Positions 3,039 through 59,733 of a stretch of DNA of 63,304 bases are shown one piece after another (position 1 is the first letter of the stretch; the number at the start of each line of letters is the position of its first letter). The notes beneath the pieces were generated by a model. The model saw nothing but the letters and a program-made list of their open reading frames with translations. It had not been told where the DNA came from and did not search any database. The position numbers and the translations under genes were made by a program. Source of the stretch: a virus (taxonomy: Duplodnaviria > Caudoviricetes); the IMG/VR virus record IMGVR_UViG_3300042934_000801, positions 1 through 63,304 of that record; one strand, given 5' to 3'.

Positions 3039-3041
3039 GCC

Positions 3042-3074: not shown

Positions 3075-3081
3075 GCCCGCG

Positions 3082-3555: not shown

Positions 3556-3564
3556 CAGCCGCCA

Positions 3565-5214
3565 ATGGAACTGATCGTTCCGAAGGATGACGGCGAGCTC
3601 TACCCGACCCTCGGAGACCAACTCTGCGACTTCCTCGAAGAGCGGGCTTGCCATGGGCCTGGTGACCTCAAGGGGCAGCCGCTCACGCTCGGCGAGGACT
3701 GGCGGTATGTGCTGTATCGCGCGTATGAGGTGTGGCCGAAAGGTCATCGGCGCGCCGGGAAGCGCCGGTTCAAGCGGGTCGGTGTGTCCTGGCGGAAGGG
3801 TTCGGCCAAGACCGAGTTCATGGCCCTGGTCGCGTTCGTCGAGCTGCACCCGGAGTCACCGGTGCGGTTCAACGGCTTCGACAAGGACGCCCCGTGCGGG
3901 CTGGCGCCGGGCCGGCCGGTCGTCGATCCGTACATCCCGATGCTGGCCAACACGAAGGAACAGGTCGAAGAGCTCGCCTACGGGGCGCTGAAGGTCATCT
4001 GCGAGGAATGCTCCGACGCCGAGCTGTTCGACGCGGCGCTCGACCGCATCATCCGGATCGGCGCCAACGGCAAGGCGGACGGCAAGGCGGTGGCGCTGGC
4101 CAACGCGCCGAACTCCAGCGACGGCGGCCGCACGACGTTCCAGGGTTACGACGAGACGCACCGTCTGTACCTGCCGAACCACAAGGCCGCCATCACCACG
4201 ATGGAAGCCAACCTCGGTAAGCGTGCCGCGCAGGATCCGTGGTCGCTGTCGACGACGACCGCCGGCGAGCCGGGCCAGAACTCGCAGGCCGAGGACGATC
4301 ACTTCGAGGCCGAGGCGATCCAGCGCGGTGAGCTGGAACGCCCCCGGATGTTCTATTTCCACCGCCAGGCGTCCGACGGCTGGGATCTGGAGAAGTTCGA
4401 AGACCGGATGAAGGCCATCGAGGAAGCCTCGGGTCCGGAGCTGGCGGCGCGCACCGACCTCGAAGATTTGGCGTCGCAGTGGGACAGCCCGAAGGCGGAT
4501 CGGACCTACCTCGAGCGGGTGTGGACGAATCGCTGGACCGCGCAGGCGGCTTCGGCGTTCAATGTGCGCCGGTTCAAGGCGCTTGGGCTGCCGGGGGAGT
4601 CGATTCCGCTGCGGTCCTACGTGACGCTCGGGTTCGACGGTGCCCGGTTCCGCGACGCGACGGGGCTGGTTATGACGGACGTCAAGACCGGGCTGCAGCA
4701 GAAGATGTTTCTGGCCGAGAAGCCGCTCGACGCGCCGGATGACTGGGAAGTTGACGAGACGGAGGTCGACGACGCGGTCCGGGACGCGTTCAAGAACTAC
4801 CGGGTGTTGCTGTTCTACGCGGACCCGCCGTATTGGAACTCCACTGTCGGTCAGTGGTCGGCCCGGTACGGGGAGTCTCGGGTCACGAAAAAGCCGATCG
4901 TGCAGGAGTTCTGGACGAACAAGCAGGAACGCATGATCAAGGCCATCGGTGCCTACGAGGACGCGATCGCCAACGGCTCGGTGTCGCACAACGAGGACGA
5001 CGACGGTGACCTGGTTCGCCACGTCGGCAACGCTGGCAAGAAACTGCTGAAGCGCATCGACCCTGAGACCGACAAGTTCCTGTGGATCCTCGGAAAGCTG
5101 CACAAAGACCGCAAGTTTGACCTGTGCATGGCTGCGATTCTGTCGTGGCAGGCCCGCATGGAAGTACTGGGCAAGATCCCGAACACCCGACGTCGAGTGG
5201 TGAAAGTGAGGTGA
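3565..5214 (+). CDS. terL: Terminase large subunit
   Basis: Walker A-like RKGSAKTE, Walker B YDETH, motif III TTTAG, nuclease LGFDG and KFDLCMA. Confidence 0.95.
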   Translation: MELIVPKDDGELYPTLGDQLCDFLEERACHGPGDLKGQPLTLGEDWRYVLYRAYEVWPKGHRRAGKRRFKRVGVSWRKGSAKTEFMALVAFVELHPESPVRFNGFDKDAPCGLAPGRPVVDPYIPMLANTKEQVEELAYGALKVICEECSDAELFDAALDRIIRIGANGKADGKAVALANAPNSSDGGRTTFQGYDETHRLYLPNHKAAITTMEANLGKRAAQDPWSLSTTTAGEPGQNSQAEDDHFEAEAIQRGELERPRMFYFHRQASDGWDLEKFEDRMKAIEEASGPELAARTDLEDLASQWDSPKADRTYLERVWTNRWTAQAASAFNVRRFKALGLPGESIPLRSYVTLGFDGARFRDATGLVMTDVKTGLQQKMFLAEKPLDAPDDWEVDETEVDDAVRDAFKNYRVLLFYADPPYWNSTVGQWSARYGESRVTKKPIVQEFWTNKQERMIKAIGAYEDAIANGSVSHNEDDDGDLVRHVGNAGKKLLKRIDPETDKFLWILGKLHKDRKFDLCMAAILSWQARMEVLGKIPNTRRRVVKVR

Positions 5215-6746
5215 ATCCGTTGACTCTGAGTCCATCTGATTGGTTCGACAAGCTCAACGAGCGGTTCACCTCGTCGATTCGCCCGAAGTGGCAGGACGGC
5301 AAGATGCGTCCTGACGAGCTGGTGCAGCGCCACAAGGCTCTGGATACGTTGTGGTCGTACTACATCGGTGATCCGCCGTTGCCGAAGGTCGCAGAGGACT
5401 ACGAGGAGATCTTCCGCGAGGTCATGCGTAAGGCTCGCTGCAACTACGCGCCGATGTGCGTGCAGGCGATGATCGACCGGATGGAATTGCAGGGTGTCGC
5501 GACTGATACCGACAAGGACTCCAACGGCGACGATATCGCCGCGCAGATCATGGAAGAGTCCGGGTTCGCGGCCCAGTTCAAGGACATGCTCGGCTATCTG
5601 TTCGCGATGGGCGAGGCGTACGGGATGGTGGTGCCGAACCCCGACGGCCCGACCATCCACGCGATCGACCCGCGCCGGTGCGTCGGCATCCCCGACCGGA
5701 AGAACCCGGTGCGCCTGCGGGCCGTGTTGGTCAAGGAATACGACGCCGAGGAAGACCGCCAGATCGGTCACCTGTTCCTGCCCGGCGAGAAGTGGGAACT
5801 CGAATACGACGCCGGCCAGTGGAAGCGGCTGAAGGACGAGCCCGAGATCATCACGGGGCTGGACGATCTCGGTGGCATCCCGATCGTGCGCTTCGAGAAC
5901 CTGCACGGACTCGGCGAGTACGAAGCGCACATCGACCTGCTCGACCGGATCATGGATATCACGCTCGACACGCTGGTGCTGATGAAGTTCCAGGCGTTCC
6001 GGCAGCGCGGTGTCTCCGGTGACGAAGACGAAGACACCGAGTACGAAGACGAGACCACCGCCGGCCAGGAGTCCGGGTTCAACGAACTGCTCACCGACGG
6101 CTCGAAAGAGAAGCGCCGGTGGGCCGACGTGTTCCAGGCCGGTCCGGGCAAGGTCTGGAAGGTGCCGAAGGACTGGGACTTCTGGGAGTCCACGCAGGCC
6201 GACCTCGGTCCGATGAACAACACCAAGCGCGACGCAGTGAAGGAATTCGCGGCGGTGACGTTTACCCCGCTGCACCTGATCACCCCCGACGACGCGAATG
6301 GGTCCGCCGAGGGCGCCGGGCTGCTGCGGGAATCCCTGACCTCGAAGGTTCGGGACCGGCGCGCGCGCATCACCCCGGGGTTGAAGCTGCTGTGGCGTAT
6401 CGCCTTCGCGATGAACGGCGAGCGTGAGCGCGGCCAAAAGGTGGACATGCTGTGGGGTCCGATCGAGTTCCGGTCGCTGGCCGAAAAGGGTTCGGCATCG
6501 GCGCAGGCCCGCGGCGTGCTGTCCCGGAAGCGGATCATGCGCGACGTCTGGGAGCTGACTCCTCAGGAGATCGCCGAGAACGAGAACGAACTGCGGGCCG
6601 AGCGGCTGCTCGATCAGGCGCTCGCCCCGCCCGCTGCCGGCGGCGGCGCGCCGGCGCCGAACAGCGTTCCGCAGGCCCAACAGCAGGAACCGACACGCAA
6701 CCCGGTTCGCCAGGTGAGCCAGCGTGACGTCGCCGTACCCGCCTGA
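5211..6746 (+). CDS. Portal protein (SPP1 gp6-like)
   Basis: Follows terL with GTGA overlap; NYAPMCVQAMIDRM, IPIVRFEN, GEYEAHIDLLDRI. Confidence 0.9.
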   Translation: MNPLTLSPSDWFDKLNERFTSSIRPKWQDGKMRPDELVQRHKALDTLWSYYIGDPPLPKVAEDYEEIFREVMRKARCNYAPMCVQAMIDRMELQGVATDTDKDSNGDDIAAQIMEESGFAAQFKDMLGYLFAMGEAYGMVVPNPDGPTIHAIDPRRCVGIPDRKNPVRLRAVLVKEYDAEEDRQIGHLFLPGEKWELEYDAGQWKRLKDEPEIITGLDDLGGIPIVRFENLHGLGEYEAHIDLLDRIMDITLDTLVLMKFQAFRQRGVSGDEDEDTEYEDETTAGQESGFNELLTDGSKEKRRWADVFQAGPGKVWKVPKDWDFWESTQADLGPMNNTKRDAVKEFAAVTFTPLHLITPDDANGSAEGAGLLRESLTSKVRDRRARITPGLKLLWRIAFAMNGERERGQKVDMLWGPIEFRSLAEKGSASAQARGVLSRKRIMRDVWELTPQEIAENENELRAERLLDQALAPPAAGGGAPAPNSVPQAQQQEPTRNPVRQVSQRDVAVPA

Positions 6747-34306: not shown

Positions 34307-34389
34307 GGAGGGTGAGCATCAGGTGATGCAGTCCGGTTGCTAACCGGATGCGGAACAACCACCGTCTGGTTCAAGTCCAGCTCCCTCCG
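34307..34389 (+). tRNA. tRNA-Ser(GCT), 8/4-type cloverleaf
   Basis: Acceptor GGAGGGTG/CTCCCTCC (one mismatch), D-stem GCATC/GATGC, anticodon loop TTGCTAA, T-stem CTGG/CCAG, G discriminator. Confidence 0.85.
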
Positions 34390-34401
34390 CGAAGTAACCA
34401 T

Positions 34402-34485
34402 GGAAGGTGCGGCTGCGGCCAGCCAGACTGCCTTGAAAGCAGTTATGCGGTAACCATTCCGGGGGATCGACACCTCCACCTTCCG
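34402..34485 (+). tRNA. tRNA-Ser(TGA), 8/4-type cloverleaf
   Basis: Acceptor GGAAGGTG/CACCTTCC, D-stem GGCTG/CAGCC, loop CTTGAAA, T-loop ATCGACA. Confidence 0.8.
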
Positions 34486-34486
34486 C

Positions 34487-34560
34487 GCTCCTGTAGCCCA
34501 ATTGGAAGAGGCACCGGGTTTAGGTTCCGGCCAGTGGGGGTTCGACTCCCTCCAGGAGCA
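34487..34560 (+). tRNA. tRNA-Leu(TAG) with short variable loop
   Basis: GCTCCTG/CAGGAGC acceptor, CCGGG-TTTAGGT-TCCGG anticodon arm, GGTTCGACTCC. Confidence 0.9.
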
Positions 34561-34572
34561 CGAGATTTGTTG

Positions 34573-34651
34573 TGCCGGTTGAAGGAATCGAACCTTCGTA
34601 GCCGCAAGGCGCAGGCTTTACAGGCCCGCATGTCTCCCAGGAACAACCGGC
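34573..34651 (-). tRNA. tRNA-Tyr(GTA) with reduced D-arm
   Basis: GCCGGTT/AACCGGC acceptor, GCGGGC-CTGTAAA-GCCTGC, GAAGG-TTCGATT-CCTTC. Confidence 0.8.
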
Positions 34652-34655
34652 GCGG

Positions 34656-34726
34656 CACGGGTGGAGAGATTCGAACTCTCATCGCACGGTTTTGGAGACC
34701 GGCGAGCTACGCCTGTGCACACCCGC
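34656..34726 (-). tRNA. tRNA-Trp(CCA) with degenerate D-arm
   Basis: GCGGGTG/CACCCGT acceptor, CGGT-CTCCAAA-ACCG, GAGAG-TTCGAAT-CTCTC. Confidence 0.8.
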
Positions 34727-34739
34727 ATGGGGTGCTGAG

Positions 34740-34814
34740 TCGGGGTGACAGGATTCGAACCTGCGGCTTCACGGATCCAAACCGTGCACTCTGGCCAAAC
34801 TGAGCTACACCCCG
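34740..34814 (-). tRNA. tRNA-Pro(TGG)
   Basis: CGGGGTG/CACCCCG acceptor, TAGCTCAG, CACGG-TTTGGAT-CCGTG, GGTTCGAATCC. Confidence 0.92.
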
Positions 34815-34971
34815 TAGAGGGCGATATCAGTGGCGTGCTGGCAGGAAGGTGTGCGCTACCGACCCAGCGGCGACTGATATCGCCAGCTGGGGCCGAACGG
34901 TCGGCCGATCAAGGTGCTCACGGGAGTGAGGTTAGCAGCACGGTCGGACATTGCCGAGCTATTTTCTGGCC

Positions 34972-34993
34972 CGTCGGTCGTCGGGTCTACTGT
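34972..34993 (+). promoter_or_regulatory. PafBC (RecA-NDp)-type promoter
   Basis: cGTCGG-10 nt-TACTGT versus consensus TGTCGG-N10-TANNNT; GTG start follows at 35000. Confidence 0.55.
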
Positions 34994-34999
34994 GTGCGC

Positions 35000-35152
35000 G
35001 TGGCCCGCACCGCTGAGACCGTCGAAGAGATCACCCTGCTCGTTCGCACGCCGCACAACCTGAAGGGCTACCGCGCATTCACCGAGGCCGAGAGAGCCGA
35101 AGCTGAGTCGTACGCCCGCAGCCAGGGCGTCGAGGTCGAGCAGCTGCCGTGA
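35000..35152 (+). CDS. Small hypothetical protein (50 aa)
   Basis: Leaderless GTG; YRAFTEAERAEAESYA. Confidence 0.6.
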   Translation: MARTAETVEEITLLVRTPHNLKGYRAFTEAERAEAESYARSQGVEVEQLP

Positions 35153-35385
35153 CGCTCGGCGAGCTTCGGCTCACACCGCGCGGAAAGTGGGCCACGAACG
35201 CACCTCGCGAGTGCGCCTACGGCCACTGGCTCGGCCCGCAGCGCGTGCTCGTCGGTCACGCCGCGTGTTCGTGCGGACGCAGCGGCGGACACACCACTTG
35301 GACCTGCCGCGAATGCGATGACGTTACGTACGGGCCACCACTATCCGCACCGTGCACCATCCGGACCGGGCCGGACGAAAGATAG
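35149..35385 (+). CDS. Cys/His-rich putative zinc-binding protein
   Basis: C..GH...VLVGH..CSC...GH..W.C..C; GTGA overlap. Confidence 0.7.
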   Translation: MTLGELRLTPRGKWATNAPRECAYGHWLGPQRVLVGHAACSCGRSGGHTTWTCRECDDVTYGPPLSAPCTIRTGPDER

Positions 35386-35390
35386 AACCG

Positions 35391-35621
35391 CTACCGGGCC
35401 CAGCCGCGGAGTACTCGGTTGCCGAGTTGGCCGGCGACGATCACGCCATATACGGCCCACAGCGGCCACGGGAGGCCGACGGTAGCGTCCAGGGCGAACA
35501 ATGCGGCGCCGGTGCTGGCAGAGGCGACCAGATCGTAATTGCGCTGCACGATGTCCATACGGCCATTATCCCTGGTCTTGGAGTTGTTGATCAAGCAGCT
35601 CGTCGACTCGATCCATCCCAC
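35391..35621 (-). CDS. Small membrane protein (true start probably the internal MDIVQ)
   Basis: Two short hydrophobic segments; GATAAT -10-like before the internal ATG. Confidence 0.45.
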   Translation of the reverse strand: MGWIESTSCLINNSKTRDNGRMDIVQRNYDLVASASTGAALFALDATVGLPWPLWAVYGVIVAGQLGNRVLRGWAR

Positions 35622-35730
35622 CGCCCGGCATGCCGAGAGTGTGCGCCAGGTACCGGATCGCGGCGATCACCCGCAGCTCAGTATCTACATCCATATGAGT
35701 AGGACGCAGCCGGTGGCCGAACGGTTCCGC

Positions 35731-36015
35731 TCAATTTCCACTGCGAGCGAGTTTCCGCCGGTAGTCGCGCATGATCGCCGTGCCGTCACCCCACACGCCG
35801 CGCTCATTGCCCTGCAGCACCCACTGGTGCTGTTGGTCGCATCGCTCGGCGATCGCACGCTTCTCGGCTTCGATCGCGGCGAGCTCGGTGTTGGCGGCAA
35901 GGTAGCGCCGGCGTAGCCACGGTCCGGCCAGGGTTATGACGACCGCGGCGACGAGCCACCAGAACCACTCGGCGGTCAGCACCGCGACGGTGATTGCGGC
36001 CAGAAGTGCGCCCAT
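35731..36015 (-). CDS. Membrane protein next to attP
   Basis: N-terminal TM pair, IAERCDQQHQWVLQG..RGVWG; TACGAT -10 seven nt before ATG. Confidence 0.7.
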   Translation of the reverse strand: MGALLAAITVAVLTAEWFWWLVAAVVITLAGPWLRRRYLAANTELAAIEAEKRAIAERCDQQHQWVLQGNERGVWGDGTAIMRDYRRKLARSGN

Positions 36016-36158
36016 GCGCGTAATCGTACGTCCGCGACACGCCGAGGAACACGTGCGGACGCCGTCGGCACCGATCCAAGTTTCCGCAGGAGCCGACAGA
36101 TTCCGGCCGATGCCGAGGGATGCCGAACCGGCAGGTAGGAACCTGTTTGCCCAGCTCA

Positions 36159-36187
36159 GTCAGGGGTTCGAATCCCCTTAGCTCCAC
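36159..36187 (+). other. attP: attP common core (3' half of tRNA-Ala)
   Basis: GTCAGGGGTTCGAATCCCCTTAGCTCCAC is a T-arm plus Ala-type acceptor 3' strand with no 5' half upstream; tyrosine integrase lies downstream. Confidence 0.85.
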
Positions 36188-36286
36188 TCAGATCGAGGCA
36201 GAAATGCCTGGTGACGGGTTCGGAACCGAACAGAGCATCACACGTCGGCACACCGGCGTCAGCACGAACAGGTTTACCCTGGTCAT

Positions 36287-38032
36287 GTGGATGCCAATAG
36301 CGAGCTTGCCGACCGCACCGTCGGGGATCTTCCCATCAAGATCGCCCGGGGCTTTGCGCTCCCGGCTGAGGCGGTCACCGAGACCTTCGCCATCCTGGCC
36401 AACCGCGGCGCCGGCAAGTCGGTCACCGCGCACCGCCTCGTCGAGCAGATGTACCGCACCGGCCTTCCGGTCGTGGTCCTGGACGTCAAAGGCGACTGGT
36501 GGGGGATCCGGTCCAGCGCCAGCGGAAAAGGCCCTGGCCTGCCGTTCGTCATCTTCGGCGGCGACCACGCCGACGTCCCGCTCGAGCCCACCGCCGGCGA
36601 GTTGATTGCCGATCTCATCGTCGACGACCGGATACCTGCGGTTCTCGACATGTCGTCGATGAGCAAGACGAAGGCCCGATCGTTCGCCACCGCATTCGCA
36701 GAACGTCTGTACACGCGCAACCGCGATGCCCTGCACGTCGTCATCGAGGAAGCCGATGTGCTTATCCCACAGCGCGCTTCGGCTGACACCGCGCGTCTCC
36801 TCGGCGCGATGGAAGATATCGCGAAGCGCGGACGTAGCCGAGGGCTCGGCTTGACCGTGGTCACCCAGCGCCCGCAGGAAGTGGCCAAGTCTGTCCTCGA
36901 ACTCATGGAAACCGTCATCCTGCTCCGGATGACCGGACCACGCTCCATCAAGGCCGCCCAAGACTGGATCAGCGTCAACGCCGGTGACGACGAGACAGCA
37001 TCTCGGGACGTCGTCGCATCGCTGCCCTCACTGCAGACCGGTGAGGCGTGGGTGTGGAGCCCGGCGTTCCTCCGTCTGCTCAAGCGGGTGAACATCACCA
37101 AGTTCGACACTTTCGATTCTCATGCCACCCCGAAGCCGGGGGAGACCCGCACCATCCCGAAGACCCGCGCCGACATTGACCTCGAGAAGCTCGGGCACGA
37201 GATCGCGGCGACCGTCCAACGGGCAAAAGAGAACGACCCGAAGACTCTTCGCTCGCGCACAGCGGCGCTGCAGGCGCAACTCACACGGACGGAGTCTGAG
37301 CGAGACGTTCTCGTGCGGGACAACGAATCGCTGCGGGCGCGGATCGCCGAACTGCAGGCAGACCGCACACCCGTTGTCCCCCAGGACATCTCCGGGACGA
37401 TCAACGCCGCGGTCAAGCTACTGCAAAAGGTGCTCGACGACTCGAAGAACAGCGATGGCAGGCCGCGGCCCGCAGTCGCTGCAGTGCCGATCGCGCGGAC
37501 ACCACCCACACCGAAAACACGCCCTGCCCCGCAGCAGCAGACCGGCGAGGTGAAATTCCGGGCCGGCGCACAGCGAATGCTCGAGTCCCTGGGCCGCATG
37601 GCTCCGCTGCGACTTACCAAGGCGCAGTGGGGCACTGTCGCCAAGATGAAGCACACCTCCGGAACGTTCTCGACCTACCTCGGCGAGCTACGCCGAGCAG
37701 GGCTCATCGAGGAAGACTCCGTCGGTTTCAGCCTCACCGAACAAGGCTTCGACTACCTCGGCGGCCGACCGGAGCCGATGTCCGGCGAGGAACTCCAACA
37801 GCACTACCTGACGATCCTGCGCGCAGGCGCATCCCGGATGCTGCAGGCCATCATGGACGCCTACCCCTCGGGGCTGGAAAAAGAAGAGATCAGTGCCCAG
37901 ATCGACATAGTGGCCAGCAGCGGCACGTTCTCGACCTACCTCGGGGAACTCCGCCGCAATGGACTGATCGAACAACACGGATGCGAGTTCACAGCGAGCG
38001 ACATCCTGATGCAGGGAGCAGCGGTCGCCTGA
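36287..38032 (+). CDS. HerA/FtsK-superfamily ATPase with coiled coil and two C-terminal winged-helix repeats
   Basis: Walker A ANRGAGKS, LDVKGDW, Walker B VIEEAD, arginine finger KRGRSRG, TQRPQ; SGTFSTYLGELRR.GLIE twice. Confidence 0.85.
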   Translation: MDANSELADRTVGDLPIKIARGFALPAEAVTETFAILANRGAGKSVTAHRLVEQMYRTGLPVVVLDVKGDWWGIRSSASGKGPGLPFVIFGGDHADVPLEPTAGELIADLIVDDRIPAVLDMSSMSKTKARSFATAFAERLYTRNRDALHVVIEEADVLIPQRASADTARLLGAMEDIAKRGRSRGLGLTVVTQRPQEVAKSVLELMETVILLRMTGPRSIKAAQDWISVNAGDDETASRDVVASLPSLQTGEAWVWSPAFLRLLKRVNITKFDTFDSHATPKPGETRTIPKTRADIDLEKLGHEIAATVQRAKENDPKTLRSRTAALQAQLTRTESERDVLVRDNESLRARIAELQADRTPVVPQDISGTINAAVKLLQKVLDDSKNSDGRPRPAVAAVPIARTPPTPKTRPAPQQQTGEVKFRAGAQRMLESLGRMAPLRLTKAQWGTVAKMKHTSGTFSTYLGELRRAGLIEEDSVGFSLTEQGFDYLGGRPEPMSGEELQQHYLTILRAGASRMLQAIMDAYPSGLEKEEISAQIDIVASSGTFSTYLGELRRNGLIEQHGCEFTASDILMQGAAVA

Positions 38033-39171
38033 TGGCGTGGATCATCGACCGGCACCGCAAGGACGGCACCCCCTACTGGGCCGTGTGCTGGCGCGAGAGC
38101 GGCCGCAACGGCAAGCAGGAATCCATCACCTGGTACGACCGCGACGACGCCCTGCACTGCAAAGACCTCATCGACAAGCTCGGCCCCGAAAAGGCCCGCG
38201 ACATCATGAAGATCATCACCGAACCCCGGCGCGCGCAGACCGTCGCCGAGTTCCTGACCGCCCACGTCGACCACCTCACCGGCGTCGAACCCGGCACCAC
38301 GAAGCGATACCGCGCCTACATCCGCAACGACCTCGCTGGCATCGGCGACATCCCGCTTCGCGCGCTCACCCGGGAGGACGTCGCACGGTGGGTCAACGCG
38401 ATGAGCCAGACCAGCTCGGCCAAGACCGTGAAGAATAAACGCGACTTTCTGTCTGGCGCGCTCAAGGCCGCAGTGAAGGCCAAGGCCATCCCGGCCAACC
38501 CCGCCGAGGACGTCCGCAACCCGCGCTGGGACCGCCGCGAAATGGTGTTCTTGACCGCCGCAGAGTTCCGGATGCTGCTCGACGAGATCCCCGCCTACTG
38601 GAAGCCCCTGATCGAGTTCCTGGTCGCCTCCGGGGCGCGCTGGTCCGAAGCGACCGCGCTGCGGCCCGCCGACATCGACATCACACATGGCACGGTCCGG
38701 ATCTCGAAGGCGTGGAAGACCGGCAGCGACGACGGCGGATACACCCTCGGTGTCCCGAAGACCCGCAAGAGCGTCCGCACGATCAACGTGCCGGCCAGCG
38801 TGCTGGAGAAGCTCGACCTGACAGGGGAGTGGGTGTTCACCAACTCCGGGCGCGGCCGCGGCCAGAACGCCACCGAGAAGCTCGGCCCCGACCCGAACCC
38901 CGTGCGCATCCACTCGTTCGCACCGAACGTGTGGCGGCCGGCCATCGAGCGCGCCAAGCTCAAGGGGCTGACGAAGTCGCCCCGCATCCACGACCTGCGC
39001 CACACCGCGGCGTCATGGCTGCTGCAGGCCGGGCGGCCGATGCCGTCCGTACAGCAGCACCTCGGGCACGAGTCGATCCAGACCACCGTGGATGTCTATG
39101 GGCACCTGGACCGCTCGAGCGGCAAGGGCAACGCCGACGCGATCGACGCGATGCTCACACCGCTGGACTAG
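38032..39171 (+). CDS. int: Tyrosine integrase
   Basis: SGARWSE, HDLRHT, LGHESIQTTVDVYGH; TGATG coupling to the ATPase. Confidence 0.95.
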   Translation: MAWIIDRHRKDGTPYWAVCWRESGRNGKQESITWYDRDDALHCKDLIDKLGPEKARDIMKIITEPRRAQTVAEFLTAHVDHLTGVEPGTTKRYRAYIRNDLAGIGDIPLRALTREDVARWVNAMSQTSSAKTVKNKRDFLSGALKAAVKAKAIPANPAEDVRNPRWDRREMVFLTAAEFRMLLDEIPAYWKPLIEFLVASGARWSEATALRPADIDITHGTVRISKAWKTGSDDGGYTLGVPKTRKSVRTINVPASVLEKLDLTGEWVFTNSGRGRGQNATEKLGPDPNPVRIHSFAPNVWRPAIERAKLKGLTKSPRIHDLRHTAASWLLQAGRPMPSVQQHLGHESIQTTVDVYGHLDRSSGKGNADAIDAMLTPLD

Positions 39172-39191
39172 CGGGAACGAGCCCGCGTGGT

Positions 39192-39704
39192 TCACGGCAA
39201 AAGGACCGCCATCACGCCGGGGTCGATCCTCCAGGTCAGTGTGCCGCCATCGTTGAACACATGCACGGGGATGTCGTGTGGCGGCCCGCCGGCGGCTGTC
39301 ATCGTCGCCATTCCCTCGAACGAGGTGTCCCCGGTTCGCACGAGCGACACGTGGTGCACACGAACATTGAATTGCGGCTGCCCTGGGTCGGCGTCGAGTG
39401 TGTTCTGAATGTTGTTCAGGACTGTGCCGGCGAGCGCGTCGATGCCGTTGGGACTGGAGTTTGCAGGCGGTATGGCGGGGGCGGCCGGCGGACTATAGGT
39501 CGGTACCCACGGCACATTGCCGCCACTAAAGACCTTGGGGCCCTGATAGATCGGGTCGAAGTAACCGCCGGTACTTCCGTCGACGCACTTCTGATAGCCG
39601 GGACCGGTCTCGTAGCAGTACGGTGCAGCGGCAGCGACACCCGCCGACCCCGCGAAACATGTGGCTGTCGCGGCCAGTCCAAGCACAGCCAATCGGAAGG
39701 TCAT
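39192..39704 (-). CDS. Secreted hypothetical protein
   Basis: Signal peptide ending VAAAA-P, Cys pair, Pro-rich linker. Confidence 0.7.
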   Translation of the reverse strand: MTFRLAVLGLAATATCFAGSAGVAAAAPYCYETGPGYQKCVDGSTGGYFDPIYQGPKVFSGGNVPWVPTYSPPAAPAIPPANSSPNGIDALAGTVLNNIQNTLDADPGQPQFNVRVHHVSLVRTGDTSFEGMATMTAAGGPPHDIPVHVFNDGGTLTWRIDPGVMAVLLP

Positions 39705-39934
39705 AGGCGGAGATCGTATTGCCGACTGCTCACCCTGCGCAGCCGGTTCACCGTGGACGCTGCGTAGGCGAGCGCCCTCTCGGTCGCCAGAAGGCGATTC
39801 AGCAGCTGGTAGTACCGAGTCGGCGTCAGGCCCATCGCGCCGATTGCGGACTCTTTGCCACCAGCAGTGGCCCACCACTGCTGCTCAAGGTCAAGGATCG
39901 CGCGCTCCTGATCGGTCAGGGAATCCATAGCCAT
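39701..39934 (-). CDS. DUF3263-like protein
   Basis: LTDQERAILDLE.QWW...G.KE.AI...G..PTRYYQ.LN.L; GGAGG RBS. Confidence 0.8.
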   Translation of the reverse strand: MAMDSLTDQERAILDLEQQWWATAGGKESAIGAMGLTPTRYYQLLNRLLATERALAYAASTVNRLRRVSSRQYDLRL

Positions 39935-40359
39935 TGGTCCTCCAGGTGATATTCGAGCTGAGACACCTCGAGCGGGTCGAGAGTGGACATGCGGGTCTGC
40001 AGGGTGGGTTCGTCGACCCAGAGGTGCTCGGCGAGCTCGCATGGGTCTCGCGTCCAGCGCAGCCCGTTGGTGAGCGCAGGGAGCGTGATGAGGCGGCGTG
40101 CGCTGATCTCCTCGACGAGGCGCTCCTCGCGCTCCGCGGCAGCCGGTTCTTCCGGCACTGGGCCGCGCTCGCGGTGCACAAGCTCGTGCGTGAGGGTGCA
40201 GCGCCGCTCGGCCTGGGTCAGTCCGCGCGCCAACCAGATCCGCCGGCCAACCTGCAGCCCCATGACACGGTCCGGGAGCCGGTACCGGCAGGACACATCG
40301 ACGTCATCGTGATGATCGCGAAGCAGCCTCCACGGGTGGAAGAGCGATTCGATGCTCAT
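39916..40359 (-). CDS. ImmA/IrrE-family metallopeptidase (antirepressor protease)
   Basis: LTQAERRCTLTHELVH, EE..V...SARRLI, LAEHLWVD. Confidence 0.9.
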   Translation of the reverse strand: MSIESLFHPWRLLRDHHDDVDVSCRYRLPDRVMGLQVGRRIWLARGLTQAERRCTLTHELVHRERGPVPEEPAAAEREERLVEEISARRLITLPALTNGLRWTRDPCELAEHLWVDEPTLQTRMSTLDPLEVSQLEYHLEDQWLWIP

Positions 40360-40367
40360 GCCGACGG

Positions 40368-40389
40368 ACGGTAGGGGACACCTCCGACA
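40368..40389 (-). promoter_or_regulatory. PafBC (RecA-NDp) promoter
   Basis: TGTCGG-AGGTGTCCCC-TACCGT, exact consensus spacing, 8 nt before the ATG. Confidence 0.75.
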
Positions 40390-40409
40390 AGATCAGTGCC
40401 GCAACGGAA

Positions 40410-40970
40410 TTACGTTGTTGTAACTCCGTCGTCCAAAGACTCATCTTCGGGGTCGGGTCCCCAACCGATCGCTGACTCATTCAGATACATTCGACCGTTG
40501 ACGATGTATAACGGAAATTCTGGCGGAGGCTGCTTCAGCGTGAAACATATGCGCTCTAGTCCGGCCTCTACGTATGGCATCAAGAACGGCAGCACGTACT
40601 CAGTAGCGAAGCTCTGCAGATCTTCTTCGTTGAAAAGTTCGGTGTCGTCGAAGTTAACTACTGCGCCCTCTTCATAGATGGCAATATGCGATTCCAGCCG
40701 TGCGTGCGCTCTTAACCTAATCCCAACCATGGCTTTTGAGGAACGGCCGAGGGAGGGTTGGAGCCGTATGGTGCCTACTGGCGCATTGTCAATACTGTCG
40801 TCTTCGCGCTCATCTTTCACATGGCGCGCAAGGAAGTAGCTAGCCGCGTGGGACATCGACGTTGCCGCTTCCCAAATCTCGTGTGGCTCAGCAGAAGTCC
40901 GCTGCTCAGCAGTGCTTGAGCGTTCTTCAGTTTCTTCCGGCACGGTGCCTTCCTGGCTTGCTGTCGACAT
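40410..40970 (-). CDS. SecB-like chaperone of a TAC system (start may be GTG 40943)
   Basis: Acidic; beta strands then DLQSFATEYVLPFLMPYV...ICFTLKQPPPEFP, matching the SecB C-terminal helix-PY-helix-P..LP pattern. Confidence 0.7.
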   Translation of the reverse strand: MSTASQEGTVPEETEERSSTAEQRTSAEPHEIWEAATSMSHAASYFLARHVKDEREDDSIDNAPVGTIRLQPSLGRSSKAMVGIRLRAHARLESHIAIYEEGAVVNFDDTELFNEEDLQSFATEYVLPFLMPYVEAGLERICFTLKQPPPEFPLYIVNGRMYLNESAIGWGPDPEDESLDDGVTTT

Positions 40971-41445
40971 GCACACTCACGTGGGCGCGATTGTCTCGAA
41001 CTACTTCCTGGATTTGCTTTTTCCAGTCGGTGAAGACGGGAATTGGGCCGGTCATCTCCGACGGGCCCACCAACTCATGCAGCGTTGACGAGTCGACGTA
41101 TTCCCACTTCTGAAAAAGCTCATTTGGACTCGCTGTCTTCAATGTCCGGTGTATCGCGCGGTCGAGATAGACCCAGTGTTCATACCGGGCGCCGATGGAT
41201 GCCGCATAACGGCGGATCGTTGATAGGCGGGGATCCGCGCCCGGGCGCTCGAATTGACTCACGGCTGTCTTATGTCGACCCCAGGCGCGGCCAAGATCTT
41301 CCTGCGTCAGTCCGGCCGCGCGGCGTAAATCAGCGAGTTGGATCAGGAACTGTTCGTCGGCATGGGCCAAATCTGCAGCTAGTCGGGCCTCAACCGAATC
41401 TTCGCCAAGACCGAACTCTTCGGCTAACTCTTCCCAGATGCCCAT
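40927..41445 (-). CDS. HigA-like XRE antitoxin with long C-terminal extension (candidate ChAD)
   Basis: LADLRRAAGLTQEDLG......AVSQFE....DPRLSTIRRYAASIG followed by about 75 extra residues. Confidence 0.8.
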   Translation of the reverse strand: MGIWEELAEEFGLGEDSVEARLAADLAHADEQFLIQLADLRRAAGLTQEDLGRAWGRHKTAVSQFERPGADPRLSTIRRYAASIGARYEHWVYLDRAIHRTLKTASPNELFQKWEYVDSSTLHELVGPSEMTGPIPVFTDWKKQIQEVVRDNRAHVSVHVDSKPGRHRAGRN

Positions 41446-41461
41446 AAGTAGAGAATAACCT

Positions 41462-42037
41462 CTACTGGTTGCCGGGGGTGAGACTGTTGCCAAGCTGACG
41501 CCCCGCGCGCCAAGCTGAGAACTCCGATCTAGCCTGCTCGATGTGCTGCCGTTGAATTGCTTGCCAGTCGTCGGAAACGAGAGAAGACGGCTTACGACCG
41601 AAAACCAAGAACAGGATCAACGCCGGTTCGACCAGTGGCGCAGCGAAGTACATTCTGAACTGCCAACCGCGGATGTCCGTGTCACCGTGCCCGTTCACGG
41701 TGACCGGATGGCGAAGCTCTCCAAGCTGACTGTCGTTGCCCTCTAGCGGGAAACACCACTCAGAGTCGCGGTCGCCTTGCAGGCCCGAACCGCGAACGCA
41801 TCCGTTGACTGCGCGCTTTCGCAGGTCGAAGACATCTCGAAACAAGGTGGCAACCAATCTGCGACGGATTCCAATCTGCTTGTCTGTCAACAGTTCTCCG
41901 TCGTCGTCTTCCTCGAACTCCCTGCTAATGGCAGCGACAACTTCCCGTGCCTGTTGCTCATACAGCTGGGTTTCTTCCCATTCAGTTCGACCACCGAACT
42001 GTTGACGCCACGGGTCATAAGTGCCGATTTCACTCAC
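41462..42037 (-). CDS. Divergent RelE/HigB-like toxin
   Basis: LGELR...FRMYF......LILFLVFGRK...Q.QHIEQAR; directly upstream of the HTH antitoxin; start inferred. Confidence 0.6.
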   Translation of the reverse strand: MSEIGTYDPWRQQFGGRTEWEETQLYEQQAREVVAAISREFEEDDDGELLTDKQIGIRRRLVATLFRDVFDLRKRAVNGCVRGSGLQGDRDSEWCFPLEGNDSQLGELRHPVTVNGHGDTDIRGWQFRMYFAAPLVEPALILFLVFGRKPSSLVSDDWQAIQRQHIEQARSEFSAWRAGRQLGNSLTPGNQ

Positions 42038-42497
42038 TCGGGCCACCGCCGCTCCAATCGCAATCGCCCGACAGTTCGATGAAGCCTTGGACGTTTTCGA
42101 TAGGGAACTGCAGGACGGTCTCGCCGATCGGGGTGCTCCACAGCCCGACGACGTCCTGCTTATTCGCTCCTGCCCATTGCCACGCGTTGCACGCTGCAAC
42201 GTGTGGTGTCTGGTCGGCCGGGCCGACGTAAGTGCCGACCCATACCCCGGGCTGGAGGCCAGGTAGATCGGACGCGGGGTTGTTCACGGCGAATGTCTGC
42301 GAGGCGGCACGGGTCGTGGTCGCGGAGATGACCAACGTCCCAGCGGCGGACACCGGCGGATTAGAACGCGACGGCTGCGCCGGCGCAGCCGGACTCGTCA
42401 CGGTAACCGTTTCGGCGGGGGCCGCGGAGTCGGTCTGCGCGCCGCATCCGACGGTGACGCCGCACAGCGCCAGCGCGGTGATTCCTGTGCGGATCAC
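42030..42497 (-). CDS. Lipoprotein
   Basis: Lipobox VTVGC, ETVTVT/Pro-Ala linker, PGVW...C..W; GTGA overlap with the repressor stop. Confidence 0.75.
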   Translation of the reverse strand: MIRTGITALALCGVTVGCGAQTDSAAPAETVTVTSPAAPAQPSRSNPPVSAAGTLVISATTTRAASQTFAVNNPASDLPGLQPGVWVGTYVGPADQTPHVAACNAWQWAGANKQDVVGLWSTPIGETVLQFPIENVQGFIELSGDCDWSGGGPSE

Positions 42498-43981
42498 TCG
42501 TCGCTGCCCGGGTCTTGGGATTCCTCGCCGCCAGCTTCGCCCTGCTCGGACCGCCCTGGCGTGTAGTCGCGCGGTGTGATGCGTGCGGCGGCCGCTAACG
42601 CGCCGGAGTATCGAGTTCCTGTAGTGGCGAGCGTCAGAGACTGCAGATGTGAATCGAGCTCGGCGATCAACCGAGCGGCGTCCGCAGATACCAGCACTTC
42701 TTCGGTGTCCGCAGATACCTGCACATTTTGAAGCCTTTCCCGGGCTCGTCCAAGCGCCGCAGTCAAGGACGACAGCTGGGCAAGTTGCCCGGCCGGTGTA
42801 TCCGCGGCCGGAGTGAGAGATCGGAGGGTTTCTTCCAGCTCCTCCGACACGCCGAGCGACGGATCGAGCTCGTCCATCATCTGAAACAGTTCGCGCAGTT
42901 TCTGCGGTATCCACGGGGGCACTAGACCGTCTGGAAACAGTGCAATTATCGGCTGGACATCACCGCTCCGGCTCGTGGCGTCCCCCCGCTCTAATTGGCC
43001 TGGTGTGCTTCCCTCGGGGGCGGTGCGAGCGGCGATGAGGTGACGTTGGACGGAAGGCTCGTGAGTCGCAGACAGGCCGGACTCGATCCATGCGGCCTTG
43101 TCAAGCCGTAGTCGACGCACCAAGTCGCGTAGTAAATCCCCATGCAGCACTGCAGGTTTGCGGAGCACCACGGTCGGAGCCTTCGCGGCAATGTCTTCCA
43201 GCAATGGGATGAACGTCTCGCTGGTCGTTGCGAAGAAGTCGAATGCCTTGATGGCGGCGTCGATCTGTTGCGGTGTGGCGTGCAGGTCAACCATCTGCAT
43301 GGCGTCCAACGTGTCGACGGTTGCGGCTTCGTAGCGTTCGACGGCGAGATAGAACACAGCGACTGTGGTGTCGACGTCGTCGTCGGGTGTCAGCGATGAC
43401 AGCGTCGTCACAGCGTCGATCAGAGCCATGGTTGTCGCATGCTGCGCTTCGATGACCGCATGGTCGATCGTTGCCGCTTCGAGTTTCGGCAGTACCGCAG
43501 CGTCGAGCTCGAAAACCACGTTCGTCTGCGGGATGGCGAAGTCGATGGACGCGGCAGGCTTGGCATTTCCCAGGTCGGCATCTTTCAAAAGGCCTGCGAC
43601 GGCTTTCTCCGCAACGCTGCCGTGTTCTAACGCATTCTGAACCATCCGCTCTTTTCCTAGCTCGGAGCGACTACGCACCCCTTTCATGCGTCGCTGGACT
43701 TCGGCGAGTAGTTCGTCGTCGGTGAGGGCGTCTGGCCCGCGGTGAATCTCGATGGCTTCCGCTGCTTCAGTGCCGGTGAGGTAGCCAGCGGCGACCAACG
43801 CCTCGACAGGCGGTCTGCCGTAGGCGCGGCTGAATACGACGACCGATTGAGCGCTGGGCTCGTTGTGTCCTTTGGACCACCGGGAGATGACTGTGGTGCC
43901 GATGCCTGAGACGTCGGCAATCTTCTTCTGTTCATCCGTCCCGGCAATCCGAGTCACGTAGTTCCACCACTCATTGGCCAC
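42494..43981 (-). CDS. Immunity repressor (XRE HTH) with very long C-terminal region
   Basis: QKKIADVSGIGTTVISRW..G...P, EALVAAGYL, LTDDELLAEV.RR; divergent from cro; TACGCT -10 six nt before GTG. Confidence 0.8.
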   Translation of the reverse strand: MANEWWNYVTRIAGTDEQKKIADVSGIGTTVISRWSKGHNEPSAQSVVVFSRAYGRPPVEALVAAGYLTGTEAAEAIEIHRGPDALTDDELLAEVQRRMKGVRSRSELGKERMVQNALEHGSVAEKAVAGLLKDADLGNAKPAASIDFAIPQTNVVFELDAAVLPKLEAATIDHAVIEAQHATTMALIDAVTTLSSLTPDDDVDTTVAVFYLAVERYEAATVDTLDAMQMVDLHATPQQIDAAIKAFDFFATTSETFIPLLEDIAAKAPTVVLRKPAVLHGDLLRDLVRRLRLDKAAWIESGLSATHEPSVQRHLIAARTAPEGSTPGQLERGDATSRSGDVQPIIALFPDGLVPPWIPQKLRELFQMMDELDPSLGVSEELEETLRSLTPAADTPAGQLAQLSSLTAALGRARERLQNVQVSADTEEVLVSADAARLIAELDSHLQSLTLATTGTRYSGALAAAARITPRDYTPGRSEQGEAGGEESQDPGSDE

Positions 43982-43993
43982 ACAACCAGCGTA

Positions 43994-44176
43994 TTGCGCC
44001 CACGCAAGATTCTGGGCTGCCAAAACGCACTTGCGTCCACGCAAGTGCCCAGCAGGTGGACTTACACGGTTGTCTTTCAGCACTGCATAGGCGCAATCAG
44101 CCACCGTTACCGAACCGTGACCTTTCTTGATTGCGCGTATGCAATCCCTCCCGTACATTCAATCGCATGGCCGCAA
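43994..44176. promoter_or_regulatory. Operator array, consensus TTGCG-N4-CGCAA
   Basis: Copies at 43994, 44031, 44083, 44131 and 44163, with a weaker one at 44017. Confidence 0.8.
44131..44159 (+). promoter_or_regulatory. Early lytic promoter (PR-like)
   Basis: TTGCGC-17 nt-TACATT; the -35 overlaps one operator and another covers the start site. Confidence 0.7.
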
Positions 44177-57758: not shown

Positions 57759-58036
57759 CCGTGCACACGTTCGCCTTGAACCCAGGCTCGGTCACCCAAG
57801 GCGTCTGCAGCTGCGGCAACTGGGACGGGCACACCGACAATCACCACTTCCACGCACGAACGAAGAACGGGCACAACGTGAAAGAGCCGGTCGATTACTT
57901 GGCCGAAGCGAAATCTGCTGTAGCGGTCGACAACAAACTCGCCACCACCTACGCGCTCATTGCCATCGCCGAAGCGATGCACGGTCTGCAACTCGCAACG
58001 GTTGCAGAGCTGCGGCGCCGATTTGAGTCGCGGTGA
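57755..58036 (+). CDS. Hypothetical protein
   Basis: CSCG.W, ALIAIAE; ATGA overlap. Confidence 0.6.
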   Translation: MTVHTFALNPGSVTQGVCSCGNWDGHTDNHHFHARTKNGHNVKEPVDYLAEAKSAVAVDNKLATTYALIAIAEAMHGLQLATVAELRRRFESR

Positions 58037-58041
58037 CCGTG

Positions 58042-59733
58042 TCACTTCGTTTCCGATTGCACTCGCGGCGGCCAGTCTGGCGGCTGCGGAAACACGGACT
58101 CTGGAATCAGCGCGATATCTTGGTCCCAGTCGAACGTCACGTGCAGACTACTCCAAATCCTTGGCTCCGTGAAAAAGGCAGTGCCGTTGAGAAATTCGGC
58201 TTGTCGAAACGACGTAAGGCCGTTGGAGAAGTAACCAGTACTGAAATCGGCCGTTCCTCGGAACAGTGCCTTGCGGAAATCTGTTCGACCGGTGAATTGC
58301 GCTTCTCTGAAGAAGACGTGACCATCGAAACTTGTTCCGGCAAAGGTTGTTTCCCCGCCAAAGCGAGCGTTCAGGAAGATTCCAACGCCTGTGAATTTCG
58401 CCTTGTCGAATACCGACTTGAAGTCGAACTGTGCTCTGCGAAAGTCGACAATCTTCTTGAAGCGAGTGCTGCTGAAGTCAGTGTGGCCGTTGAACAATGT
58501 GTCGGTGAAAAGCGCGCATCCGGCGAATCTGGCGTTTTCGAAAAGAGCTCCGCGCCCGAAAGTGGCACCAGAAAAGTCAATATCGCCAGCGAAGACGGCA
58601 TCCTCAAAATCGGCAGCTCCCAAAAACGCTGCCTTCCGAAAGCTCGCGTCCTCGAAATGGACTCCGCTAAAATTGAAATTGCATGTACTCCAGCTGTTTT
58701 CCGCAGACTCGCGAAGGTGAGCGGCAATAACGTTCACCACAGTTGTGCGAACTACGCGGTCGTTCTGCCGGACCTTGCGGTGGGTCGTTACCTCCTGGCT
58801 GGACTGCGCTTCGTCAGCGTCGAGGTGGCCTTGTTTTGTCACGACTTCAGTGACGTCACTGGCCCCGGTCTTTGGAGAGTAAGGCAGGCGAAGATACCCA
58901 CACAGGACATCAATGCACTGTTGGCGGCGTCCAGTCGTCGTCGCTTCATCTGCGGCCGTGGTCATTGCGTAGACTCCGGCGATACGGACCGCTGGATCAG
59001 CGTCGCCAAGCTGGGCTGCGGCGGCCCCAAATCTCTCGATGAATCTACCCTGCTCAACATCCCGTTGGCGTCGGTAGGCGACCACCAAGGCCACAGCAGC
59101 GCCAACACCTGCTACTGCGGTCAACGCTGTCTTAAGCACATCAATCCTGGTCGGAGGCGTGCCGCCCGCGGGATGAAGAGCGTGTTCGATGGTCGAGTAG
59201 CTGACCCACACGAGCAACAAGCCGACGCTCACAGCGGCCAATACCGTCGGCATCAGAGACCAGGAGTGGATGCGTCGGCCCAATGGTGCGAGCCCGAGCG
59301 TGGACCTAATAAAAAGCAGGCACACCCCGAAAGCGATCGTGCCTCCCGCAGCGGCAAGAGACAATCGGCCGACATTGCTGTCGACCGGGGTCATCCAGTC
59401 CCAAATCTCGCGCCCTGTTTCGACCATGTCGGTATTGCCCGAGACGAGAAACACGGCAAATCCGGCGAGAAGGCCAGGGATCAGCGCGACCAAGAAAATC
59501 CATCCCGGCAGCGTTGTAGGTGCTCGCAGAACCTTGACGTCCAGTCTTTCCGACCTACCTCTTTGCACTGCGACATTCAAGCAGTTCGGATGAGTCCACG
59601 TTTGGTTTGGCAGCAAGAGAAGGCGAGGAACGGTCGTGTTTGAGCGATCGACAATGGACGCCCGCCAGGACCGGCAGTCCCACCGCTGCATAGCGGGCGA
59701 CAGCTGCCGCGCCCGGCGCGACGAACTCGGCAC
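58042..59733 (-). CDS. Membrane-anchored pentapeptide-repeat protein (true start probably near 59568)
   Basis: Several TM helices, ALVVAYRRQ, ERF..AA.QLG...VRIAGVYAM, QQCIDVLCGYLR, then many A.F..A.F repeats. Confidence 0.88.
   Translation of the reverse strand: MPSSSRRARQLSPAMQRWDCRSWRASIVDRSNTTVPRLLLLPNQTWTHPNCLNVAVQRGRSERLDVKVLRAPTTLPGWIFLVALIPGLLAGFAVFLVSGNTDMVETGREIWDWMTPVDSNVGRLSLAAAGGTIAFGVCLLFIRSTLGLAPLGRRIHSWSLMPTVLAAVSVGLLLVWVSYSTIEHALHPAGGTPPTRIDVLKTALTAVAGVGAAVALVVAYRRQRDVEQGRFIERFGAAAAQLGDADPAVRIAGVYAMTTAADEATTTGRRQQCIDVLCGYLRLPYSPKTGASDVTEVVTKQGHLDADEAQSSQEVTTHRKVRQNDRVVRTTVVNVIAAHLRESAENSWSTCNFNFSGVHFEDASFRKAAFLGAADFEDAVFAGDIDFSGATFGRGALFENARFAGCALFTDTLFNGHTDFSSTRFKKIVDFRRAQFDFKSVFDKAKFTGVGIFLNARFGGETTFAGTSFDGHVFFREAQFTGRTDFRKALFRGTADFSTGYFSNGLTSFRQAEFLNGTAFFTEPRIWSSLHVTFDWDQDIALIPESVFPQPPDWPPRVQSETK

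Follow-up and report, generated by a model that had tools for sequence, protein, structure and literature searches.

Why does a tailed phage carry a gene for a HerA-like ATPase between its attachment site and its integrase gene, and does this position tell us what the ATPase does? The question was raised by IMGVR_UViG_3300042934_000801, a complete virus record that is 63,304 bp long, is bounded by direct terminal repeats and contains about 65% GC (the window, meaning the whole stretch of DNA that was analyzed). At positions 36,159 to 39,171, a sequence-only reading had described the phage attachment site attP, the ATPase gene and the integrase gene int in this order, and had proposed that the ATPase is either a single-gene defence factor or a DNA-translocating helper of integration and excision. 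The results showed that the arrangement is real and that the ATPase belongs to the FtsK-HerA superfamily. The role of an integration helper was largely refuted at the level of the family, and the position between attP and int is best explained by mosaicism. We propose tentatively, with somewhat less than even confidence, that the ATPase is a self-contained, DNA-targeted translocase of mobile-element DNA metabolism that acts independently of the integrase.

We examined the protein for motifs and for its predicted fold (Table 1). No further ATG, GTG or TTG codon occurs between the GTG start and the Walker A motif. The core contains Walker A (GAGKS, residues 41 to 45), Walker B (VVIEEAD, residues 151 to 157) and a TQRP motif (residues 193 to 196) that aligned to the SQRP of solved HerA chains. 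In an alignment of 50 family sequences, G43, K44, E155 and Q194 were invariant and R195 was conserved in at least 90% of the members. We take the QRP motif to be a sensor plus a trans-acting arginine, with the Arg of TQRP as the arginine finger. The TFDS-ATPK motif that follows the core is also conserved, and its T275, T281 and P282 were invariant in the same alignment. A model made by AlphaFold2 (AF2) with this alignment as the input had a mean confidence (pLDDT) of 90.5, with a low-confidence segment from residue 386 to residue 425, and the two winged units appeared in it as compact helix-strand units at about residues 426 to 497 and 500 to 576. When the C-terminal half was modelled alone, the pLDDT was 96.5. 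The two copies of the recognition-helix repeat begin at residues 458 and 545. According to superposition with VIA-align, the winged helices resemble MarR-family, RuvB and other winged-helix domains with Z scores of 9 to 11.2, and the nearest relative of the tandem pair, a weak one, was ScpB. Fold searches with the C-terminal half gave no functional clue; they returned winged helices of a generic MarR/ArsR kind and a tandem that resembled ScpB weakly. No membrane anchor was predicted, the maximal Kyte-Doolittle mean over 19 residues being 1.08 against the usual 1.6. Every element of the protein that the sequence-only reading had described, from Walker A and B and the putative arginine finger to the coiled coil, the Pro-rich linker and the two repeats, was recovered by the motif positions and the AF2 model.

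Table 1. Positions of the attP core, the ATPase gene with its encoded domains, and the integrase gene in the window
Feature	Position	Strand	Remarks
attP common core	36159..36187	+	29 bp equal to the Mycobacterium tRNA-Ala(GGC) 3' end, comprising T-arm and acceptor strand
ATPase open reading frame (ORF), 581 amino acids (aa), stop included	36287..38032	+	GTG start; core, stalk, tether and two winged helices; no HAS barrel
RecA-like P-loop core, aa 17-295	36335..37171	+	Walker A, Walker B, TQRP, TFDSHATPK at 275-283
Long helical, coiled-coil-like stalk, aa 299-385	37181..37441	+	AF2 secondary structure; DP..L motif conserved in the family alignment
Pro-rich linker, aa 386-425	37442..37561	+	Variable in length, low confidence, 8 of the 40 residues are Pro
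Winged helix 1 (MarR/ArsR type), aa 426-497	37562..37777	+	Carries the SGTFSTYLGELRR recognition-helix repeat
Winged helix 2, aa 500-576	37784..38014	+	Second copy of the SGTFSTYLGELRR repeat
Tyrosine integrase, 379 aa	38032..39171	+	ATG shares its A with the ATPase TGA

Next, the ATPase was placed among known motors. Two Pfam families were matched above their cut-offs, DUF87 with 38.6 bits (23.2 required) and HerA_C with 35.7 bits (22 required). The best Foldseek matches were HerA hexamers (9x1m at 5e-13, 4d2i and 8wiv) together with the STIV2 packaging NTPase B204, and the best PDB matches by both sequence and fold were HerA hexamers from the HerA-NurA, Sir2-HerA and DUF4297-HerA complexes. 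With Walker A and B on a RecA-like fold and the QRP motif, the ATPase belongs to the FtsK-HerA superfamily; the earlier description of a HerA-like ATPase with tandem winged helices is supported by Pfam, Foldseek, AF2 and the winged-helix superposition. It is not a HerA orthologue. The HAS barrel is absent, with 40 residues and two short strands before Walker A, and HerA profiles and chains matched from their ATPase domain onward. The scores against the NCBIfam HerA equivalogs were far below the cut-offs (NF040819, 68.3 versus 970; NF040937, 51.4 versus 800; NF042943, 41.4 versus 800; NF042944, 33.1 versus 850). An effector partner is also missing. The sequence-only reading had seen no adjacent NurA, Sir2 or nuclease gene, and no nuclease, Sir2 or TIR partner was found among the 11 neighbouring ORFs of the window that were scanned, which encode small proteins of PHROG category "unknown," the integrase, a DUF3263 protein, a metalloprotease and helix-turn-helix (HTH) regulators. 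Neither NurA nor SIR2 was among the 25 commonest Pfam families on each side of the ATPase genes of relatives (290 neighbour proteins). In all three features, the protein departs from HerA proper.

Two other assignments were tried and rejected. The protein is not a member of the FtsK/TraB translocases, as it had no FtsK_SpoIIIE or FtsK-gamma Pfam match at an E value of ≤0.1 and no membrane anchor, nor is it a type IV coupling protein (TrwB_AAD_bind, 13.9 versus 20.5 bits; TraG P-loop, 13.0 versus 25.8). Some copies are named [quoted passage not shown] in their source records. PADLOC was applied to the ATPase alone; its HerA models (best, 5.4e-19) matched the second half of the core alone, and mad8 (PDLC04140; E value, 6.4e-14) weakly matched residues 34 to 268 with positions 30 to 297 of its 314, the greatest model span among the PADLOC models listed. 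PHROG 2666 ("terminase large subunit") matched residues 30 to 236 at 2.1e-15, and PHROGs has no dedicated family for this ATPase. A packaging ATPase is ruled out by the classical large terminase already encoded by the phage (phrog_9, 1.6e-55). A role as the replicative helicase was also considered: the window contains a replication initiator gene (phrog_2447), and no helicase was found among the 10 right-arm ORFs scanned, but in relatives DnaB co-occurred with the ATPase in at least three loci.

A comparison with known systems showed what is particular to this architecture. The archaeal HerA of HerA-NurA and the bacterial HerA of Sir2-HerA and DUF4297-HerA share the RecA-like core, Walker A and B and the QRP motif with the phage ATPase. 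The phage protein differs from them in having Walker A already at residue 41, without the barrel in front of it and without NurA, Sir2 or DUF4297 as a partner, whereas a stalk, a tether and two winged helices are added at its C terminus. FtsK and Streptomyces TraB are alike in combining a superfamily motor with C-terminal winged-helix DNA readers. In FtsK, the gamma winged helix recognizes KOPS and also activates XerD; the winged helix of Streptomyces TraB recognizes clt repeats. The phage gene likewise adjoins a tyrosine recombinase gene, but each chain has two MarR-type winged helices and no membrane anchor, and the link to the recombinase is not conserved (see below). STIV2 B204 superposes with the core alone (TM to target, 0.69 to 0.72) and has neither a stalk nor winged helices. 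The core is also all that is shared with two distant archaeal groups, arCOG00280 "HerA-like helicase" of integrated elements and haloarchaeal DUF87+WH_Halo proteins; archaeal clusters with DUF87 and a winged helix occur among the ESM Atlas neighbours, and the plasmid matches are 25 to 28% identical. The mad8 protein of the MADS defence system has a similarly HAS-less core, but it is one component of several in a multigene system, and its model (length, 314) includes neither a stalk nor winged helices. The phage ATPase gene stands alone. No description of this architecture or family was found in the literature, with subscription journals outside the coverage. "FtsK-like" genes of Streptomyces phages are mentioned in passing in one paper as possibly used during replication (PMC11536984).

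The family is very large. An exhaustive phmmer search gave 10,093 representatives of 50%-identity clusters at an E value of ≤1e-3 and 4,335 at ≤1e-30. The best 150 representatives were mostly 548 to 630 aa long and aligned over residues ~17 to 575. The whole architecture, with motifs, stalk, linker and both winged helices, was kept across 50 representatives that were 35 to 61% identical to the query. The nearest ESM Atlas clusters were 68 to 83% viral, and a relative was encoded on 336 IMG/VR contigs. Eight full-length copies were located on large Mycobacteriales plasmids, with weaker, core-only matches on haloarchaeal and other plasmids. Relatives were further found at 13 genome loci, mainly of Mycobacterium and Nocardioides plus a Planctomycetia metagenome-assembled genome (MAG), and at 7 mostly short loci in a metagenome scan. 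The GC content of 84 viral loci ranged from 34 to 73%, with a median of 63%. The family is therefore found mostly in uncultivated phages and Mycobacteriales plasmids, as a portable module. Six of the best 150 representatives were 877 to 966 aa long due to insertions of ~330 to 370 aa, located at Walker A (P0135, P0159, P0205 and P0261) or just after Walker B (P0221 and P0223). Five of these six matched LAGLIDADG, homing-endonuclease or Hint profiles, and the insertions are therefore inteins. Inteins in catalytic motifs, together with overlapping early-operon genes, are a pattern of core DNA-metabolism genes, and their presence here suggests that the ATPase matters to its carriers.

We then considered how the ATPase gene relates to its two flanks. 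In 2 of 5 Actinomycetota genomes examined, tRNA-Ala(GGC) ends in the 29 bases of the attP core without a mismatch, and in all 5, other tRNA-Ala copies differ from the core by 1 or 2 mismatches; a reversed-pattern control for the core gave no match. ARAGORN called no tRNA at this site in the phage, so that the core is a partial tRNA copy, as expected of an attP core. The integrase matched PF00589 with 76.1 bits (cut-off, 27.1). A recombinase catalytic domain next to an attP core identical to a tRNA 3' end is what defines a tRNA-targeting tyrosine-integrase module, and the flanks of the ATPase gene have both. From the end of the core to the int ATG, we measured 1,844 bp, in agreement with the ~1.85 kb reported before, and the ATPase TGA (38,030 to 38,032) has one base in common with the int ATG (38,032 to 38,034), as had also been noted. 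On the plus strand, the core has the same orientation as the tRNA; therefore, integration would put the restored tRNA-Ala directly upstream of the ATPase gene and int, which agrees with the sequence-only reading. Repeats around attP that might serve as arm-type sites were limited to short two-copy families that could be due to chance.

If the ATPase served integration, its gene should travel with an integrase gene, and we surveyed the family for such a linkage. In the first 50 viral records, a search with PF00589 gave a match in 20 and none in 30. The match was missing in 7 of the 15 records that were at least 90% complete, and also in the complete 108-kb record behind locus L019. Of the 20 positive records, 2 had their nearest integrase no more than 2.5 kb from the ATPase, where uniform placement would give 2.26, and 6 had it no more than 5 kb away, where 4.4 would be expected. 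A hidden Markov model built ad hoc from six tyrosine recombinases was also run on 100 loci and recovered all three nonseed PF00589 sites inside them. With this model, a tyrosine recombinase was detected within ~8 to 9 kb at one of 16 bacterial or plasmid loci, L014. A tblastn search of these 16 loci with the window integrase gave no matches, and it also missed the real, divergent integrase of L014. Serine recombinases accounted for 3 of 140 downstream neighbour proteins, this tally not being a genome-wide survey of them. The homologues therefore sit in unrelated contexts, which the sequence-only reading had itself named beforehand as one part of what would refute its proposal.

A related locus, L014, is a prophage contig of a Mycobacterium MAG whose ATPase is ~80% identical to that of the window. 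The stop of the L014 ATPase gene again shares one base with the ATG of the next gene, which is intact and encodes a tyrosine integrase of 414 aa. This integrase is only 23% identical to the integrase of the window. About 130 bp upstream of the L014 ATPase gene, at ~2490 to 2545, the 3' half of a different tRNA was recognized by eye on the opposite strand, next to a host-like Ser/Thr kinase gene; ARAGORN made no call there, and Rfam gave subthreshold matches alone. Downstream of the L014 integrase gene are homologues of the DUF3263 and metalloprotease genes of the window. DNA homology between the window and L014 extends from about codon 28 of the ATPase gene to its stop, and it ends there at both sides. 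A short metagenome contig with an 81% identical ATPase, L109, has the same left border with yet another upstream sequence. The ATPase gene is therefore a mosaic module bordered at its own ends. In this lineage, it has kept its place between att and int as the sequences on either side were exchanged, which argues against a specific partnership with one integrase.

To see what else accompanies the ATPase gene, genes were called in 85 loci (84 viral loci plus the window) with a codon-position GC model. The next gene downstream (+1) was codirectional with the ATPase gene in 74 of the 85 loci and overlapped the ATPase stop in 43 of these 74, by 4 nucleotides (nt) in 26, by 1 nt in 8 and otherwise in 9. 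Such overlaps are common whatever gene follows; therefore, a junction of the translational-coupling type is generic for this ATPase. The overlap on which the sequence-only reading had based a translational coupling of ATPase and integrase is thus real, but it is not specific for int. Larger neighbours within 4 kb were assigned to Pfam families (coverage, 150 of the 188 proteins upstream and 140 of the 189 downstream). The tallies were led by ParB_N/HTH_ParB, DNA methylases, RecT, DnaB, exonucleases, DUF5131, integrases/resolvases and small terminases, a composition that is that of phage early or DNA-metabolism regions. In the Nocardioides locus L009, homologues of the window terminase and putative portal lie ~4 kb downstream of the ATPase gene. 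Three plasmid contexts differed from one another: one had toxin-antitoxin genes and LigD, another had hypothetical proteins alone, and in the third the ATPase gene came directly after eccB and two genes annotated with an FtsK/SpoIIIE domain. We also observed a family of 230- to 260-aa ORFs at 1 to 2.5 kb from the ATPase homologue in 6 of the 16 bacterial or plasmid loci (L003, L004, L005, L008, L012 and L017). It is labelled as an HNH endonuclease family protein in a Tsukamurella plasmid, and 4 of the 6 loci are syntenic copies of one element, so that their independence is low.

On the basis of these results, we suggest that the ATPase could be a self-contained DNA motor in which a minimal HerA-type core is followed by a helical stalk, a tether rich in Pro and a pair of MarR-type winged helices. 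By analogy with HerA, FtsK and B204, it would probably assemble into a ring and move on double-stranded DNA (dsDNA), driven by ATP, to translocate along or unwind it. The winged helices on their flexible tether would most likely attach the motor to DNA or to a partner that is itself bound to DNA. Its substrate would be the DNA of the element itself during replication, recombination or genome processing and maturation, and the integrase would not be needed for this activity. Mosaic recombination at gene borders would have put the ATPase gene between attP and int. In this phage, the two genes are probably cotranscribed and translationally coupled, and their adjacency would reflect gene packing, not a shared mechanism.

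Several observations weigh against this proposal. The ATPase gene of the window is in the lysogeny region, not in an early operon, and lysogeny regions are a frequent seat of accessory genes expressed in lysogens. Among the 85 loci, BLASTP found no conserved neighbour family, the largest cluster being DUF5131 in 12 loci, and a relative was found in 1 of 50,697 records of isolated phages, among which very close records may be hidden. The L014 copy (positions 2672 to 5297) is split over no fewer than three frames and has lost much of its stalk and linker region; these breaks are due to either decay or an assembly error, and if they are not an assembly error, the gene is dispensable in that prophage. 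Independence from the integrase is challenged by the att-ATPase-int order, which is repeated in L014 with a different att site and a different integrase. It is also challenged by 3 of the 84 viral loci (L066, L080 and L100) where a tyrosine recombinase gene starts less than 1 kb downstream on the same strand, in L066 as an overlapping +1 gene. These three loci may reflect a loose tie to integration modules in some lineages.

The explanation closest to the position of the gene, namely, that the motor remodels attP and attB DNA or activates the integrase as FtsK does XerD, would account for the one-base overlap between attP-proximal ATPase gene and int, for the same order in L014 and for the overlapping recombinase gene in L066. 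We nevertheless consider it very improbable. An integrase is missing from 30 of the 50 viral records, nearly half of the near-complete ones (7 of 15) and the 108-kb phage of L019, and where it is present, its distance from the ATPase gene is that expected by chance. No tyrosine recombinase was nearby at 15 of the 16 bacterial or plasmid loci. Between the window and L014, the ATPases are conserved and the integrases are not, with homology ending exactly at the int start, and overlapping junctions are generic for this ATPase. Another reading takes the gene as an accessory conflict gene, expressed in lysogens or early in infection, whose single product would use its HerA-type motor and winged helices to exclude other phages or plasmids or to counter host HerA defences such as Sir2-HerA. 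The PADLOC matches to HerA models and to mad8 point in this direction, as do the location at a prophage end beside att and int and after the restored tRNA-Ala, the behaviour as a single-gene mosaic module moving between phages and plasmids with no fixed neighbours, and the frequency of DNA methylases and other anti-restriction-type genes nearby. However, the protein has no effector domain, no nuclease, Sir2 or TIR gene was found in the scanned neighbours, and the matches to defence HerA models are confined to the shared core, with scores against the NCBIfam anti-phage HerA models of 41 versus 800 and 33 versus 850. The inteins in catalytic motifs and the embedding in overlapping early-operon genes also point away from it, not decisively, and in L014 it is the ATPase gene that is broken and the integrase gene that is intact. 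We regard a conflict gene as unlikely, though it is the foremost alternative to a self-contained motor of mobile-element DNA metabolism.

A motor for segregation or transfer is less likely still. It would be an FtsK/TraB-like or coupling protein-like pump whose winged helices read sites of the element, often together with a large ParB-like protein, and which would partition, condense or move the DNA of the phage or plasmid. Of the 50 viral records, 17 carry ParB_N, and in 9 of these a ParB_N gene is located on the strand of the ATPase gene and no more than 2.5 kb from it, against 2.0 expected (~4.5-fold). These neighbours are ParB_N+HTH_ParB proteins of 300 to 570 aa (for example, L049:5242-6846, L045:3140-4837 and L060:2062-3501). 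They may form a functional partnership with the ATPase in a subset of carriers. Full-length copies on large Mycobacteriales plasmids, including the one directly after eccB and two FtsK/SpoIIIE-domain genes, the conjugative DNA transfer names of some copies and the parallel of motor plus C-terminal winged helix with FtsK-gamma and TraB are also consistent with such a role. Against it, ParB_N is missing from 33 of the 50 viral records and from the window phage, and the ParB clustering could result from a shared early-operon location. The FtsK_SpoIIIE, FtsK-gamma and TrwB_AAD_bind results given above and the low maximal hydropathy do not fit such a pump, and no 8- to 10-mer stood out in the phage genome as overrepresented or strand skewed, as a recognition site might be. 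A broader version of the idea, to which we give a similarly low probability, is that the ATPase represents a third kind of tailed-phage DNA motor besides terminase and replicative helicase. It would pump dsDNA in the manner of FtsK/TraB and be targeted to sites by winged helices that read the DNA of the element, with a large ParB-like clamp as a partner in about one-fifth of the carriers to segregate, condense or clear DNA, and here it would belong to an attP-proximal operon with int. If this were true, a promoter left of attP would drive the ATPase gene and int from the circular, nonintegrated genome alone. A promoter and terminator scan of positions 34,800 to 39,400 gave counts at the level of shuffled sequences, with nothing upstream of the ATPase gene.

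The left arm of the phage genome contains the large terminase gene and structural genes, including an ORF at 5,124 to 6,746 that is assumed from its position to encode the portal and shares 33% identity with the ORF adjoining the L009 terminase homologue. The ATPase locus is positioned between a cluster of six tRNA genes called by ARAGORN (34,307 to 34,814) and a leftward lysogeny block (39,192 to 44,158) with genes for the DUF3263 protein, an ImmA-like metalloprotease, HTH regulators and a repressor-like 554-aa protein. The tRNA cluster has Ser-GCT, Ser-TGA and Leu-TAG on the plus strand and Tyr, Trp and Pro on the minus strand; a tRNA cluster is likewise found just upstream of the ATPase homologue in the related Mycobacterium kyorinense locus L002. 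The rightward early arm encodes an antirepressor, RecE/RecT-like proteins, a DNA methyltransferase and the replication initiator. Directly after int, a 228-aa ORF on the minus strand (39,192 to 39,878) had no PHROG match and an internal hydrophobic, signal peptide-like stretch as judged by eye, and its product may be a secreted protein expressed in lysogens; L014 has a 190-aa ORF at the equivalent position. The DUF3263 gene (1.2e-21) overlaps the ImmA-like metalloprotease gene (phrog_87) on the minus strand (39,701 to 40,359). Both are kept in L014, and they may be a regulatory pair of the lysogeny switch. The GC content falls to 0.554 in the 58- to 59-kb bin from ~0.65 elsewhere in the window. 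A 536-aa ORF at 58,033 to 59,643 matched neither PHROG nor Pfam, and an antisense ORF of equal length spans 58,042 to 59,733. A megablast search of positions 35,900 to 39,300 against isolated phages gave no match. The host is probably a Mycobacterium, an assignment that is weak, with five genomes examined. Among the sequencing runs listed, one from a soil metagenome contained the whole window and may be its source, and none was an RNA run.

Current work on HerA-type motors treats them as partners of nucleases or NADases, in DNA repair and in defence against phages. In the present family, such a motor core without the barrel or an effector is fused to its own DNA-docking domains, with docking being predicted. 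At 50% identity, the family falls into thousands of clusters; cultured phages lack it almost entirely, and PHROGs has no family for it. Finding its role would fill a recurrent blank in the genomes of phages and actinobacterial plasmids and could reveal a new way in which mobile elements handle their DNA. The locus also indicates that attP can be located nearly 2 kb from int owing to a mosaic gene wedged between them, which bears on the delimitation of prophages and on the design of integration vectors.

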